In this document: positions 8,830 to 12,902 of the stretch, piece after piece
Layout of the letters: each line of letters starts with the position of its first letter
How positions within the stretch are numbered: position 1 is the stretch's first letter
DNA from: Bacillus subtilis subsp. subtilis str. 168
Lineage (GTDB): Bacteria > Bacillota > Bacilli > Bacillales > Bacillaceae
Length of the DNA: 32,000 bases
Assembly: GCF_000009045.1 (NCBI RefSeq)
Contig: NC_000964.3
Coordinates: 810,001 to 842,000 of the forward strand
Direction: 5' to 3'
The notes under the pieces: generated by a model
What the model was told of the DNA's origin: nothing
The model's input: only the letters and a program-made list of their open reading frames with translations
The model's database searches: none
Position numbers and translations under genes: made by a program

Positions 8830-8994
8830 TTTCATCCTCCTATCACTTGGTTGACACCACTGTAACATGGACAGGAGAGGAAATACAAAAGGTAAGCTGG
8901 CATACAAAAAAGGTTATAGATGAGCTTATGCTTTCTACAAGCTCTTTTGTTTTAAAAGTTCTCTTTAGTCATTTATCATTATTAGAAAACAGAA

Positions 8995-9241
8995 CAGAAA
9001 AAGAGCTCCTGTACACCTAGCTAAGATTGGCTAGTGTGTATGTCGATTCTTTTTCATATTCTTGCAAGCATCTGCGAGGGGGAGCTTAGTCGTTCACATT
9101 TTGCTTTCGCATCAATCTGCAATAGCAAAGTCTATGCGATTTTTTTACATCAGCAAAGATTTGTTCAATTTTTTCCTTTTATGCCGAGTTTTTCTGAAAC
9201 AGATAATTGATGGTACTCAACCATTTTCTTTTGGTCAATAA
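8995..9241 (+). repeat. Left copy of the degenerate direct repeat flanking the island
   Basis: Colinear shared blocks with the right copy: cagaaaaagagc (8995-9006), tagcta, ttagt..cattt, ctgcaatagcaaag (9117-9130) and ttggtcaataa (9231-9241). Confidence 0.55.
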
Positions 9242-9310
9242 AGTAATGTTTACTTATTAATTAAACACGCGAAAAAGCAAACGAAAACATAATTAAATTT
9301 TATATATTTA

Positions 9311-10531
9311 TTAAAAGCTTATATGTTTATTTACCTTTTTTTTGAATTGTAATTGAGAAAATCCATATATTGCGGACACTAATAAAAGAATACCTGCTGA
9401 AACATAAACTAAACGAACTCCAAGGAAATCTGAAATAGCCCCTATAGCCAGAATTGAAAACATAAAAATGAACTGTACTAAAGAAGACCTTGCAGACATT
9501 ATATTAATTCGAGTTTGCTCGGTTGTTATGTTCTGAATAAGTGTTTCTTGTGTAAGATCTCTTAATATATAAGCCGGCCCCATAAAGAGAACCAAAATTA
9601 GAGCTAAGTATGAATTACTTATAAAACCATATATTAAAGTTAAACTTCCATATGAGACAGCGCCAATTAACATAAAATTAATTAACTTATTTTGAAATCT
9701 CTCCGACAGCTTATATATTATAAATCCCCCTATCATCGAACCTAAATAATATGCTCCATTAATAAATCCCCACCATGATTCTCCTTTATGCAAGACTTCG
9801 TTAACGAAAGCTAAAGAGACAGATCCTATCCAAATCATTCCTGCCCATGACTCAATTAAATCCATAATAATAATTGTTCTAAGTTTCTTTTGGCTAAATA
9901 AATACCGCCAACCACTTACTATACTCTTATTGGGAGAATTTTTTTCACGTATGACAGAATTAGCGTGGCCATGTGGTAGACAAAATAAAAGAGAAAGAAG
10001 AGATGTAAACAACAAAAAGATAGTAAGTATAATGGTATATCCCTCACCTAAAAATGCAATTATGAGACCACCTAAAGACCAGCCTACAAATTGAAAAGTT
10101 TGGTCCACTGTAGATAATAATCCATTTGCTTTTACTCTTCTATCAGGAGAGATTATTTCCCCTATAATTGCACTTTTTAAAGGTGAGAACCATCCATTAA
10201 AAAAGGAAATACAGCTAATAATAATAAAGACTAAAATGAGAGTTTGATTAGAGTAAGTTCTTAATAAAGCATAGAACAAACATATTAATAACAGCATTTG
10301 TATCAATTGAGAAATAATTATTGTAAGAGGCAGTTTTAATCGAATTGTTATTAACGGTAATATAGCACTTCCAAAAATACGAAAAATAATACTTATTAAT
10401 GTCACCATAGAGGCGATGGTTGTCGAATTGGTCATTTTAAACAAAAACGAAATCACTACCATAGTATATAGAGAAAAACCTAAATTTGTAGTGGTCTGGC
10501 TAAATAAAATAGAATAATAACCTTTACTCAT
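9311..10531 (-). CDS. yfmI: MFS transporter (12 TM, exporter-like)
   Basis: 406-aa very hydrophobic ORF with SD gggagga 6 nt upstream. About 28% G+C. Confidence 0.88.
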   Translation of the reverse strand: MSKGYYSILFSQTTTNLGFSLYTMVVISFLFKMTNSTTIASMVTLISIIFRIFGSAILPLITIRLKLPLTIIISQLIQMLLLICLFYALLRTYSNQTLILVFIIISCISFFNGWFSPLKSAIIGEIISPDRRVKANGLLSTVDQTFQFVGWSLGGLIIAFLGEGYTIILTIFLLFTSLLSLLFCLPHGHANSVIREKNSPNKSIVSGWRYLFSQKKLRTIIIMDLIESWAGMIWIGSVSLAFVNEVLHKGESWWGFINGAYYLGSMIGGFIIYKLSERFQNKLINFMLIGAVSYGSLTLIYGFISNSYLALILVLFMGPAYILRDLTQETLIQNITTEQTRINIMSARSSLVQFIFMFSILAIGAISDFLGVRLVYVSAGILLLVSAIYGFSQLQFKKKVNKHISF

Positions 10532-10570
10532 ATGTATCCTCCCTTGGAATAATTTTTCTCGGTAAAGAGC

Positions 10571-10597
10571 TTAAACATATTTAAACACCTTAAAACA
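10571..10597 (+). repeat. Three helically phased direct repeats TTAAACA / TTAAACA / TTAAAACA in the divergent promoter region
   Basis: Copies at 10571-10577, 10581-10587 and 10590-10597, spaced about 10 bp, between the yfmI and peptide-gene starts. Confidence 0.4.
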
Positions 10598-10620
10598 ACA
10601 AAAGTAAAGAAAAAATTTCC

Positions 10621-10649
10621 TTGTAAACTATTTACTTTTATTCTATTTA
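10621..10649 (+). promoter_or_regulatory. Putative sigma-A promoter for the peptide-yfmG transcript
   Basis: TTGTAA, a 17-nt spacer, then TATTTA. This is weak evidence because the region is very AT-rich. Confidence 0.3.
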
Positions 10650-10728
10650 TTGTTATTGTTTATTTAAGTTCTCTGACTATTCTATCAATATTCAGGGAAC
10701 CACATATCTTATTAAAGGGGGGAAAACC

Positions 10729-10800
10729 ATGAGAAAATTAAGAAAAAACTGGAGAAAATCGATTGTTAGCCCGGTTCTTTATACTAATGAAAAATGGTAA
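10729..10800 (+). CDS. yfmH: 23-aa cationic peptide MRKLRKNWRKSIVSPVLYTNEKW (candidate precursor or leader peptide)
   Basis: SD AAAGGGGGG (10714-10722) lies 6 nt before the ATG, and the stop is TAA at 10798-10800. It is the only SD-preceded ORF I found between yfmI and yfmG, so I infer by position that it is the locus named yfmH. Confidence 0.6.
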   Translation: MRKLRKNWRKSIVSPVLYTNEKW

Positions 10801-10808
10801 ACACTTAG

Positions 10809-10838
10809 GGAATAGCATTTAATGCTATTCCTTATTTC
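10809..10838 (+). terminator. Perfect hairpin (attenuator or leaky terminator) between the peptide ORF and yfmG
   Basis: GGAATAGCATT-t-AATGCTATTCC (10809-10831) followed by ttatttc. It starts 9 nt after the peptide stop codon. Confidence 0.55.
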
Positions 10839-10866
10839 AACAAACAAATCGGGAGGTTATCGTAAT

Positions 10867-12330
10867 TTGACTCTATTAATGCAAGATCATAAATCAATTT
10901 ACAATAAAGATATAGAAATATTAATTGAAGTTGAAGAACTTATTACTTCTGTTCCAGAAAATAAAAAAAATGATTTTAAGAGTTTAATCGATAATAGAAT
11001 TATGACTCTACTAAATAAAATTCAACACCCTGTAGCAGCGGAAAATGTGTTTGGGATGTGTATTGCTTATCCGAATACTTACATAAGGTATAGATTAATT
11101 GATTTCGTTGAAAAATGGGTACCTTATTTCTCTGCTGTAGAAACTATAATCAATCTAACCCAGGATCCGGATGATTTAGTTTCTTTTAAAGCTATGGATG
11201 TCTGTGCAAATCATAAAATTGAAGAATCTGTAGCATATTTGTCTTCGATTATTGATGATGTCCGGGAGAGTATAAGCTACCCTAAAAAACCTGTGGGATT
11301 AGGGGCCCAAAAAGTATTAAGTACATTATTAGATATATTCGGTGTTGAAAAACATGAAGAGCTAGTAATGCTAAAAAATTATTTTGATCAAAATGGTATA
11401 CTTCCTAATAACTTTGACTTTGAAGAAAAAATTCCTCAAAGTCTAATAGAGGAATTCGAAAAAACAGAAGAAGATGGGATGATTTTAATTCCGGGTGGCT
11501 TTTTTGAATTCGGTTTAAATGAAAATGAAATTCCTGACAAAACATTTAATTGGAAAGATGCTGTTCCTAGACAAAAAGTATGGTTACCTCCATTTTTTAT
11601 CGATAAGTATCCTGTTACAAATAAAGATTATGATATCTTTACCGAGTTCATAGAGGAAAATGGGCATATATTCTGTCATCCTAATGAACCGCAGAATAAA
11701 CAACATAGAAGAAATACATATTGGGATGATAGGTATTTAGATAATCATCCCGTTACAGGTATAGATTTTTATGATGCATTTGCTTACGCAAGATATAAGG
11801 GGAAAGAATTGCCAACCGAGTTTCAATGGGAAAAAGCTGCTCGAGGCGAAAAGGGTAATGTCTGGCCTTGGGGAGATAAATTTGATCCTGCAAAGGTTCA
11901 ATATGCTGGAAGTCTTTATAATGAACCCATTACTTCTTTAAAGTCCTGGAGAGAAAATTTATTAAAAGCTCATGCTGATAAAGAATTAAATCATTTAACA
12001 AGTGATATTTTTGAACAAAATGGTGAAAGTCCCTATGGAGTATGCGGTATGATCGGCGGAACATGGGAGTGGACTAGAAGTGAGCTTAAAACAAAGAGAG
12101 CTTTCCACCCTATTTTTGAGAATGTACCATTTAATAGTGTTAACTCATTTGCCGTTCTTAAAGGAGGATCATTCTTCTCTCATCCAGGCTTAATGTTCCC
12201 TTCTTTTAGAGCAAAAGATATTCCTTTCTGTCGACACAATGAAATGGGGATTAGATGCGTAAAGAATATTCCAGTATATAAAATTAGAGAATCAATTAAT
12301 GGGCCAATTACTAATAAAGCAATTTATTAA
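10867..12330 (+). CDS. yfmG: Cytoplasmic protein with N-terminal HEAT-like repeats and a C-terminal FGE-sulfatase (SUMF1/EgtB/PvdO) fold domain
   Basis: The C-terminal half has family motifs: ILIPGGFFEFG, FFIDKYPVTNKDY, HPVTGIDFYDAFAYARYKGKELPTEFQWEKAARG, GGTWEWT, LKGGSF and MGIRCV. I chose the TTG at 10867, 10 nt after GGGAGG. The alternatives are the ATG at 10822, which lies inside the hairpin, and the ATG at 10879. No signal peptide. Confidence 0.85.
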   Translation: MTLLMQDHKSIYNKDIEILIEVEELITSVPENKKNDFKSLIDNRIMTLLNKIQHPVAAENVFGMCIAYPNTYIRYRLIDFVEKWVPYFSAVETIINLTQDPDDLVSFKAMDVCANHKIEESVAYLSSIIDDVRESISYPKKPVGLGAQKVLSTLLDIFGVEKHEELVMLKNYFDQNGILPNNFDFEEKIPQSLIEEFEKTEEDGMILIPGGFFEFGLNENEIPDKTFNWKDAVPRQKVWLPPFFIDKYPVTNKDYDIFTEFIEENGHIFCHPNEPQNKQHRRNTYWDDRYLDNHPVTGIDFYDAFAYARYKGKELPTEFQWEKAARGEKGNVWPWGDKFDPAKVQYAGSLYNEPITSLKSWRENLLKAHADKELNHLTSDIFEQNGESPYGVCGMIGGTWEWTRSELKTKRAFHPIFENVPFNSVNSFAVLKGGSFFSHPGLMFPSFRAKDIPFCRHNEMGIRCVKNIPVYKIRESINGPITNKAIY

Positions 12331-12386
12331 TCATTCTAGGTTAGAGACTTGATAAAAGTATACTAACATTGTGTAGTAATGTTCAG

Positions 12387-12427
12387 CTTGTAGAAAAAAC
12401 AATGTTTTTTCTACAAGATTTTATTTT
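12387..12427 (+). terminator. Terminator after yfmG
   Basis: 15-nt arms CTTGTAGAAAAAACA / TGTTTTTTCTACAAG followed by attttatttt. Confidence 0.75.
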
Positions 12428-12460
12428 AAATGCTTTTCAAAATTATCAGGGATTGAGAAT

Positions 12461-12744
12461 CAGAAAAAGAGCCATTAAGCTCGATCTTAGCTAGGTATTA
12501 CGATCTTCTGTATATTATTGTGAGAAATATAGAAGATTCAGTTAGTTAGCATTTCGATTTTAAGCTGAGCCTGCAATAGCAAAGCATCTGTTTTGATTAT
12601 TCTTTTTCTGATACATAAGCTAATTTTGTCGCTTTTCTTTTTTGTCTTTTCACGCATTTCGAGGATGACTTACTATAATTCTTTCAGCTTTTCTATGTGT
12701 TAAGATTCGAATAGATGAAATAACTTTAACAAGTTGGTCAATAA
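12461..12744 (+). repeat. Right copy of the degenerate direct repeat flanking the island
   Basis: The same ordered blocks as the left copy: cagaaaaagagc (12461-12472), ctgcaatagcaaag (12571-12584) and ttggtcaataa (12734-12744). Confidence 0.55.
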
Positions 12745-12850
12745 GAACAGATTTAACTTTATGTTAAAAGAGTATCTCGTATAGAACATAAGAAGAATGA
12801 CGAGTTTTTTAAGATTATCATCAATTATGTGAGAATAAAATATTATAAGG

Positions 12851-12882
12851 GAAAATGAAGGCTGTCACGTTTCTCGACAGCC
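12851..12882 (-). terminator. Terminator after yfmF (end of the yfmCDEF operon)
   Basis: Stem ggctgtc / gacagcc. On the minus strand it is followed by ttcatttt. Confidence 0.65.
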
Positions 12883-12902
12883 CTAGGGAATTCCTCTCCT
12901 TT

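Follow-up and report, generated by a model that had tools for sequence, protein, structure and literature searches.

In this study, we analysed a 32,000-nt stretch of the chromosome of Bacillus subtilis subsp. subtilis str. 168 (NC_000964.3, positions 810,001 to 842,000; hereafter the window, in whose numbering coordinates are given) with a focus on three adjacent genes, yfmI, yfmH and yfmG. We propose that they form a compact, horizontally acquired peptide-modification module resembling the loci of peptides that are made on ribosomes and altered after translation (RiPPs), in which the hairpin between yfmH and yfmG also serves as an attenuator; we give this reading about an even chance of being right. 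Among the explanations weighed below, it accounts best for the co-conservation of peptide and enzyme, the linked exporter, the tailoring-type neighbouring genes and the company that the locus keeps in the AbrB regulon. What is new here is the fold of YfmG together with its missing catalytic residues, a new family motif, the co-conservation of peptide, enzyme and transporter, and the signs of horizontal transfer. The elements of the module are located as follows.

9311 to 10531, minus strand: yfmI, encoding a 406-aa, 12-transmembrane transporter of the major facilitator superfamily (MFS; MFS_1/MFS_3), the proposed exporter.
10631 to 10659, plus strand: sigma-A promoter of yfmHG (-35 TTTACT at 10631-10636; extended -10 TGtTATTGT at 10651-10659).
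10717 to 10722, plus strand: Shine-Dalgarno (SD) sequence of yfmH, GGGGGG inside AAAGGGGGG.
10729 to 10800, plus strand: yfmH, encoding the 23-aa peptide MRKLRKNWRKSIVSPVLYTNEKW, published as a leader peptide and proposed here as a precursor or substrate with a C-terminal Lys-Trp.
10806 to 10841, plus strand: terminator/attenuator hairpin (stem-loop 10806-10834, then TTATTTC).
10852 to 10857, plus strand: SD sequence of yfmG, GGGAGG, 9 nt before the TTG start.
10867 to 11466, plus strand: N-terminal HEAT-like helical-repeat domain of YfmG, aa 1-200, seen in the AlphaFold2 (AF2) model and proposed to bind the peptide.
11470 to 12264, plus strand: domain of YfmG with the fold of the formylglycine-generating enzyme (FGE), aa 202-466 (PF03781); the gene ends at 12330.
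11665 to 11712, plus strand: family motif of YfmG, H267-x2-C270-H271-x2-E274-x3-K278-x-H280-x-R282, a candidate metal or active site.

The evidence that carries the proposal is the association of a short peptide gene with the enzyme gene. A first-pass annotation of the window had recognised here the layout of a precursor, a maturase and an exporter, and had staked this idea on the short open reading frame (ORF) and the MFS gene being retained beside YfmG homologues. Both are: an MFS gene accompanies every intact Bacillales homologue, and a short ORF ending in Lys-Trp, or rarely in Lys-Asp-Trp, is found upstream of YfmG-type genes in four phyla (in Bacillota, Actinomycetota, Alphaproteobacteria and Halobacteria). 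Counting the frames that end in Lys-Trp (KW) plus 0-2 residues, with a stop codon between -450 and +110 of the start of the YfmG-like gene, we found one in 45 of the 56 loci, against a background density of 0.016 per interval of equal size. A short precursor gene conserved beside a modifying enzyme is expected of RiPP loci. When read more closely, most of the exceptions disappear (L012, L041, the Stappia and Rhodobacteraceae loci, and three Halobacteriales loci). Having survived the comparison, the precursor/maturase/exporter layout is now the best-supported interpretation, but it stays one that we infer.

The only universal feature of these peptides is K(D)W at or near the C-terminus, while their body differs by clade. 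In Bacillales, the ORF encodes a peptide of the type [ND]W[RK]..P..KW, lies directly 5′ of the enzyme gene and is followed by a hairpin 5-15 nt past its stop codon; examples are MKMKKNWRNRLAIVMPVLQEEKW, MKRNWRKHITKPLTFSREKW, MKRNWKKGFSTPMPFFSEIKWG, MKTLDRDWKESIFEPVMFADEQKWK, MKSLKRNWKETIIEPSLSISGKWD, MKKMTKNWKKSIVNPVLYTNAKW and MKRNWRKGITKPVAFSGAKWG. The ORF of Kroppenstedtia is placed between the MFS gene and yfmG, which indicates that it travels with the enzyme gene. A second class, MKxxRKWNALR..VRPAG..FKWxx, is encoded by a 29-codon ORF in actinobacterial four-gene cassettes (e.g. MKVVRKWNALRAARAGAVRPAGRHFKWSA), in which a strong SD sequence, the ORF, a 12-16-bp GC hairpin 7-14 nt past its stop codon and the enzyme gene follow one another. 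Several synonymous codons are found at eight invariant residues of this ORF, which is therefore under selection as a peptide. Other actinobacteria have an acidic class, MSDxxFxxxRD...KW (e.g. MSDGTFMDTRDADEETSKW, MSDEQFLDSRDEGEIATKW and MSDKDFIASRDEKKATTKWEA); in two of these loci (L045 and L053), the ORF stops 5-8 nt before the enzyme start. As no hairpin stands between ORF and enzyme gene in these two loci or in L013, the ORF is not merely part of an attenuator. In Alphaproteobacteria and in locus L090, the ORF ends in ..MQDG(D/E)AGND..QIAEKW and precedes a gene for a protein with the metallo-beta-lactamase (MBL) fold; in L041 its position is mid-cluster. Halobacteriales peptides are MNWSSEWTEEQADSQTLSFLEADADKW, MSWATEWVNEQSETQNESYVDAFTKDW and MDYAKAWVDAEA(D/E)KSTKAVTGPVDGKWD(S/A)I(V/T). 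The metagenome loci L089 and L090 carry a peptide of the KW type as well; that of L089 is MDILRERLVAVTSRLPKVKDWPG, and a hairpin follows it.

The non-Bacillales ORFs were found by cross-genus comparison of upstream frames together with a search for KW-ending frames; a hidden Markov model built from the Bacillales peptides gave no match to the actinobacterial, archaeal or proteobacterial ORFs. Pfam and NCBIfam contained no family for YfmH (E ≤ 1) or for eight further peptides (seven of them in Pfam; E ≤ 10). Rfam searched with an actinobacterial leader returned only sub-threshold, chance-level matches, such as the sbcD RNA, whose 20.8 bits fall short of its gathering score of 40. In bacteria, the charge of the peptide opposes that of the N-terminal domain of the enzyme (Spearman -0.61, p = 0.002, uncorrected for phylogeny): basic peptides (+4 to +8) accompany acidic N-domains (-10 to -16), and acidic peptides accompany near-neutral ones.

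Several loci depart from the common arrangement. In Anoxybacillus (L003/L004; 694-801 and 7567-7674 in locus numbering), the KW ORF and its hairpin are located some 330 nt further upstream of the enzyme gene, next to transposase genes, and A. ayderensis (L007) has lost the KW ORF and has another sequence upstream. In Siminovitchia (L012; 6893-6955 in locus numbering), a 142-aa minus-strand ORF lies between the peptide ORF and the enzyme gene. The actinobacterial hairpin has no T-run and holds an SD-like GGAGG paired with CCTCC; its stem CCTGTGGAGGG...CCCTCCACAGG is conserved in most genera examined (L016, L018, L020, L034, L036 and L055), while that of L023 differs.

The enzyme gene itself has a long frame at 10822-12330 on the plus strand, and its SD-backed start, the TTG at 10867, gives a protein of 487 aa. 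This TTG is also the published start; the public gene call (P0001, 502 aa) begins YfmG at an ATG within the terminator hairpin. Pfam profiles bore out two assignments of the first-pass annotation, an MFS protein for YfmI (MFS_1 and MFS_3) and an FGE fold for the C-terminal half of YfmG, where the FGE-sulfatase family PF03781 matches aa 202-466 with E = 9e-69. Its third assignment, HEAT repeats in the N-terminal half, fared less well at the level of profiles, with HEAT_2 at only E = 0.21, below the Pfam cut-off, but the AF2 model (predicted local distance difference test score, pLDDT, 90.5) has about ten stacked helices with a DPDDLVSFKA motif at aa 8-176, followed by the FGE fold. Given this helix stack, the name HEAT-like is reasonable. 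By profile, the same domain matches designed alpha-repeat proteins (7e-5 to 8e-4).

Foldseek matched YfmG to EgtB, OvsA, CalU17 and FGE, with FGE structures at E ~1e-14, and its closest solved relative in sequence is CalU17 (1.4e-39, profile). The catalytic residues of FGE and EgtB are not retained. In the profile alignment, Cys336 and Cys341, the copper ligands of human FGE, align with Ser and Met in the segment GGSFFSHPGLMF of YfmG. Pfam gave no DinB_2 match in YfmG, while true EgtB relatives carry PF12867, and the protein falls below the NCBIfam cut-offs for EgtB (TIGR03440, 106.7 against 360) and SenA (77 against 420). What YfmG possesses is a motif of its own, H-x2-C-H-x2-E-x5-H-x-R, which is invariant in 30 homologues and also present in both paralogues of the four-gene cassettes, and which is absent from CalU17 and FGE in profile alignments.

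Full-length relatives of YfmG are patchily distributed; those within the top 150 hits fall into a few dozen clusters when grouped at 50% identity. Those of B. inaquosorum and B. spizizenii are 99% identical to YfmG of the window, followed by Priestia (77%) and Anoxybacillus (66%); further ones occur in Anoxybacteroides, Siminovitchia, Thermoactinomycetaceae, Kroppenstedtia, Paenibacillus, Macrococcus, Mammaliicoccus and Staphylococcus kloosii (about 50%), and at about 33% identity in many Streptomyces, other actinomycetes, Stappia and Halobacteriales. In every intact Bacillales locus, a YfmI-like MFS gene adjoins the YfmG homologue, in three gene orders: divergent in the B. subtilis group, Priestia and Anoxybacteroides, directly downstream in Anoxybacillus, Staphylococcaceae and Thermoactinomycetaceae, and upstream on the same strand in Kroppenstedtia. 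An MFS gene is likewise part of a four-gene cassette with 4-bp overlaps (YfmG-like protein, PhyH dioxygenase, second FGE-fold paralogue and MFS transporter), which we saw in Streptomyces, Siminovitchia, a Bacillota metagenome-assembled genome and a Bacillus megaplasmid. The adjacency of the MFS gene in intact Bacillales loci and in these cassettes is as expected of a dedicated exporter. The best NCBIfam match of YfmI is the ryptide export MFS transporter NF041056, at 169.7 bits (E = 1e-49) against a cut-off of 575, so that YfmI resembles this exporter family and is not a member of it.

Other cassettes carry S-adenosylmethionine (SAM) methyltransferase genes 3′ of the enzyme gene, or combine MBL-fold, YfmG-like and CobW genes (in Stappia and on a metagenome contig). 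Among the conserved neighbours of YfmG homologues, we found no sulfatase, EgtD, EgtC or radical-SAM gene, and no gene for a nucleoside triphosphatase (NTPase), nuclease, caspase, TIR protein or effector. Three replicons show the cassette in particular surroundings. Streptomyces sp. NBC_01537 holds the four-gene cassette and its KW ORF twice (L030 and L031), at 32-50 kb and at 9.85-9.87 Mb of its 9.9-Mb linear chromosome, and thus in the terminal inverted repeats. On the megaplasmid of Bacillus sp. ZJS3 (L086; 8476-15362), the cassette stands beside genes for three ATP-grasp ligases, an aminotransferase and a HAD hydrolase, and on a plasmid of S. coelicoflavus (L087; 1445-7476) beside deoxysugar, glycosyltransferase and flavin adenine dinucleotide (FAD) monooxygenase genes.

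The yfmI-yfmH-yfmG block is horizontally acquired. The first-pass annotation had taken it as foreign to its surroundings and as holding only these three genes, and both statements are confirmed. Indeed, G+C per 400-nt segment is 0.42-0.50 up to about 8900, 0.26-0.35 at 9000-12800 and 0.46-0.51 beyond 12800, and the remaining ORFs listed in the island are short and overlap yfmI, the 23-codon yfmH and the 487-codon yfmG. The island and its landmarks are as follows.

8910 to 12880, no strand: AT-rich island, with a G+C of about 0.31 where the flanks have 0.45-0.46.
8931 to 9180, no strand: left copy of a diverged direct repeat of about 250 bp (local alignment and colinear repeat seeds).
12387 to 12417, plus strand: yfmG terminator, a 15-bp perfect inverted repeat and a T-run.
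12407 to 12636, no strand: right copy of the direct repeat (local alignment and colinear repeat seeds).
12858 to 12884, minus strand: yfmF terminator, which marks the right edge of the island.

The direct repeats bracket the three genes with an alignment score of 28 against 13.5 ± 1.7 in 300 dinucleotide shuffles, none of which reached 28. A Campbell-type integration, duplicating the former yfmF-yfmJ spacer, could have left them as its scar. A 14-mer, CTGCAATAGCAAAG, and a 12-mer, CAGAAAAAGAGC, are common to both copies. In Kroppenstedtia, the G+C of the module is 0.42 against 0.54-0.56 in the flanks, and in most other hosts the module is slightly more AT-rich than its flanks, L006 being an exception. 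Transposase, integrase or FtsK/SpoIIIE genes adjoin the module in several genomes, and in some hosts it is also plasmid-borne. A similarity search with the whole island found no phage DNA, and an Rfam search of the island gave no match at E ≤ 1.

Comparison with B. inaquosorum and B. spizizenii (L001 and L002) shows 98-99% identity in the coding part of the island (9311-12330), against 91-95% for the core genes on either side and 88-93% for the AT-rich non-coding edges of the island. Per codon, yfmG has 2.7% and yfmI 3.7% synonymous differences, whereas yfmF has 16% and yfmJ 19%. This pattern suggests that the genes were recently exchanged between species, or else that silent sites are constrained.

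Part of the locus has been described before. The first-pass annotation knew of no function assigned to the three genes, which does not hold for the 23-codon ORF and the hairpin, published as a leader-peptide attenuator (Ritchey et al. 2020, RNA 26:1431; PMC7491331). That work identified the sigma-A promoter with its extended -10 and a start 201 nt upstream of the yfmG TTG, which corresponds in the window to a transcription start near 10666. It showed with a yfmH'-'lacZ fusion that yfmH is translated, and with Term-seq evidence that the hairpin is a NusA-dependent terminator (PMC7491331). In the sequence, the arms 10806-10819 and 10821-10834 are 93% complementary and fold as a 13-bp stem which, followed by TTATTTC, places an intrinsic terminator between yfmH and yfmG, as an attenuator requires. 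The minimum free energy of the 201-nt leader is -45.2 kcal/mol (z = -3.3 against shuffles). In this fold, codons 14-16 of yfmH (GCCCGGUU, 10770-10776) pair with AAUCGGG at 10846-10852, a stretch just 5′ of the yfmG SD sequence and reaching into it; translation of yfmH might thus also free the yfmG ribosome-binding site.

Two papers list yfmHG among the genes under AbrB control. Its expression is AbrB-repressed and heterogeneous, alongside sboA-alb, epeXEPAB, dhb and yvmC-cypX (PMC8849057), and in a whiA mutant it increases threefold, along with that of sunA, epe and dhb (PMC10714963). The attenuation study contains no comparative or conservation analysis, does not cover yfmI and leaves the function of YfmG open, suggesting an FGE-like sulfate scavenging (PMC7491331); the missing copper cysteines disfavour that suggestion. 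Thus, the attenuator component is already published, while the partnership of peptide and enzyme appears to be undescribed. Our literature search found no paper tying FGE-fold enzymes to such peptides, to RiPPs or to precursor peptides, and nothing relevant on the FGE-like/PhyH/MFS combination, on PF03781 or on yfmI, whose name is swamped by an unrelated abbreviation. CoiH and the bufferin fusions, which we considered, are unrelated.

We can propose the following scheme for the module. YfmH, of 23 aa, would serve as precursor or scaffold peptide, with the C-terminal Lys-Trp as its functional end, and YfmG would be the maturase, its HEAT-like N-domain holding the body of the peptide. The FGE-fold domain, which would have lost the copper cysteines and never had the DinB iron site of EgtB, may oxidatively modify the Lys-Trp end through the H-x2-C-H-x2-E-x5-H-x-R site, and the product would leave the cell via YfmI. 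The hairpin would have two roles: it may keep enzyme transcripts below precursor transcripts, and, as experiments have shown (PMC7491331), it ties read-through into yfmG to the translation of yfmH, so that expression rises under amino-acid shortage, with AbrB repression acting in addition. In this scheme, we infer the binding of YfmH by YfmG, the chemistry at Lys-Trp and the export by YfmI.

Several observations weigh against this proposal. No modified YfmH and no product are known, the only experiments on yfmH show a regulatory role (PMC7491331), and a length of 19-23 aa leaves a peptide little room for both a leader and a core. A leader peptidase is missing: no peptidase gene occurs among the conserved neighbours of YfmG homologues. 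Many RiPP loci depend on housekeeping proteases. A hairpin 3′ of the short ORF, present in most homologous loci, is expected of an attenuator, and an MFS gene is absent from several class II/III loci. No convincing KW ORF was found in L046, L017 or L088, and the KW-positive loci, though they span about 20 genera and at least five peptide classes, include many closely related Streptomyces. Finally, the correlation of charges is lost when haloarchaea, whose proteins are globally acidic, are included (rho = -0.21, p = 0.30).

The strongest competitor is a purely regulatory yfmH, acting by codon-supply attenuation or as an arrest peptide of the TnaC kind, with YfmG working on a free small molecule moved by YfmI. 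We regard this as possible though rather doubtful. It draws on direct experiments: amino acids cut expression about 8-fold by lowering read-through, an effect mapped to the leader and not to the promoter, and replacing the start codon of yfmH by a stop codon reduces expression and leaves a yfmG fusion unresponsive to amino acids (PMC7491331). In the published model, slow translation of yfmH favours an antiterminator and YfmH is a counter of 13 kinds of codons (PMC7491331). The distances given above between stop codon and hairpin, in Bacillales and in actinobacteria alike, are within reach of a ribosome on the stop codon, and in the arrest variant a ribosome paused at the Lys-Trp-stop end would cover the 5′ arm of the terminator. 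The layout, in which enzyme and transporter come after a leader of some 24 aa that has a conserved Trp, also resembles tnaC-tnaAB, and methyltransferase and dioxygenase neighbours would suit small-molecule metabolism as well.

However, codon counting predicts no conservation of specific residues such as N-W, P and K-W, and an arrest peptide is hard to reconcile with a body that changes entirely between clades, from basic to acidic, while the ribosomal exit tunnel is conserved. The ORF is also kept where there is no hairpin, including translationally coupled cases and archaea, and it precedes an MBL-fold gene in Alphaproteobacteria and L090 or stands mid-cluster in L041. A body that varies by clade with a constant Lys-Trp, and an ORF that persists without a hairpin, in archaea and before other first genes, are difficult to explain by attenuation only and fit a substrate or a partner of the enzyme. 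Two narrower regulatory candidates were dropped: a macrolide-type '+x+' arrest motif in YfmH, which the peptides of Macrococcus and Mammaliicoccus do not share, and classical tandem-codon Trp attenuation, as the Trp codons of yfmH are single.

The peptide might instead be a small partner of YfmG (an activator, an inhibitor, a chaperone or a metal-delivery tail) whose Lys-Trp docks without being consumed. The same co-occurrence and clade-specific co-variation would be expected, the loci have no peptidase, and CobW-type metallochaperone genes adjoin the enzyme gene in classes II and III. On the other hand, nothing in the data requires such a partner, and an exporter linked in three gene orders suits an exported product better than a stable cytoplasmic complex; we consider this explanation improbable.

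The two remaining readings are effectively excluded. The first-pass annotation had also raised, on the ground that FGE folds are joined to repeat domains in conflict systems, the idea of an anti-phage system with HEAT and FGE-fold domains as ligand sensor, which the foreign origin of the island might seem to favour, but PADLOC assigned YfmG, YfmI, the PhyH protein and the second paralogue to no defence-system family (marginal repeat-type matches only, E = 0.005-0.008), the conserved neighbours are a transporter and tailoring enzymes and not an NTPase, nuclease, caspase, TIR protein or effector, and the island has no similarity to phage DNA. That YfmG is a true FGE maturing a sulfatase, or a sulfoxide synthase of the EgtB/OvoA type, would agree with its strong PF03781 match and with database labels ('gamma-glutamyl hercynylcysteine S-oxide synthase' and 'FGE family protein' among them), but is contradicted by the replaced copper cysteines, the missing DinB domain, the low EgtB score, the lack of a conserved sulfatase, EgtD or EgtC neighbour, and peptides without CxPxR.

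If the proposal of a RiPP-like module is extended beyond B. subtilis, YfmH-type peptides and YfmG-type enzymes may represent an undescribed class of peptide-derived natural products in bacteria and archaea, a wider claim that we advance tentatively and with somewhat less than even confidence. Just as tentatively, an FGE-fold metalloenzyme with a new His/Cys/Glu site might act on a ribosomal peptide of 19-60 aa by oxidatively modifying or crosslinking its C-terminal Lys-Trp, and a small molecule or a modified peptide might then be exported, following the logic of pyrroloquinoline quinone (PQQ) and mycofactocin without a radical-SAM enzyme; B. subtilis 168 would hold a silent copy, in which yfmH would be a precursor gene doubling as attenuator. 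If true, this would give a testable function to a gene pair of the best-studied Gram-positive model, and formylglycine formation and sulfoxide synthesis would be joined by a third chemistry of the FGE fold. Genome miners would gain a maturase family whose precursors have a very simple signature, namely a short ORF with Lys-Trp at its end. The yfmH 'RNA switch', as published, would also have to be reinterpreted, as the sequence of the peptide, and not just its codon content, would be selected in four phyla.

Among known systems, the nearest is the yfmH-yfmG attenuator, which is the very same locus, with its promoter, translated 23-codon ORF, NusA-dependent terminator and amino-acid response (PMC7491331). 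In tnaC-tnaAB, similarly, a ribosome at the end of a leader ORF of about 24 aa with a conserved Trp decides on transcription into an enzyme and a transporter gene. TnaC nevertheless acts through Rho-dependent termination and senses free Trp, whereas the body of YfmH-type peptides is unconserved between clades and some of their loci have no terminator.

On the enzyme side, CalU17 of the calicheamicin cluster (PDB 6vqp, 7ml6) is, like YfmG by profile, an FGE-fold protein, and lies in a natural-product cluster; it has neither the N-terminal repeat domain nor the H-x2-C-H-x2-E motif, and its function is unassigned. EgtB, OvoA, SenA and OvsA, the top Foldseek matches of YfmG, are also two-domain proteins with a C-terminal FGE fold, but their N-terminal domain is a DinB domain with a three-His iron site, where YfmG has HEAT-like repeats. 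FGE itself (SUMF1) shares the fold and is a peptide-modifying oxidase that binds an extended Pro-containing peptide. YfmG differs from it by the absence of the copper Cys pair, by an extra N-terminal helical domain and by a different invariant His/Cys/Glu motif, and its peptides have no CxPxR.

Among peptide pathways, streptide (with its Lys-Trp crosslink), ryptide and tryglysin resemble the module by their short precursors, their chemistry on Lys and Trp close to the C-terminus and their MFS exporter, although these streptococcal RiPPs use radical-SAM enzymes and shp/rgg, and the yfm module has neither. The maturases of PQQ and mycofactocin are radical-SAM enzymes with a RiPP recognition element (RRE) partner, in place of the HEAT-like and FGE-fold protein encoded here without a radical-SAM gene. 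In their layout, however, PqqA and MftA are close to YfmH: a peptide of 20-30 aa stands first in the operon, the enzyme genes follow, and only a few conserved residues, at the C-terminus in MftA, are used to make a small product.

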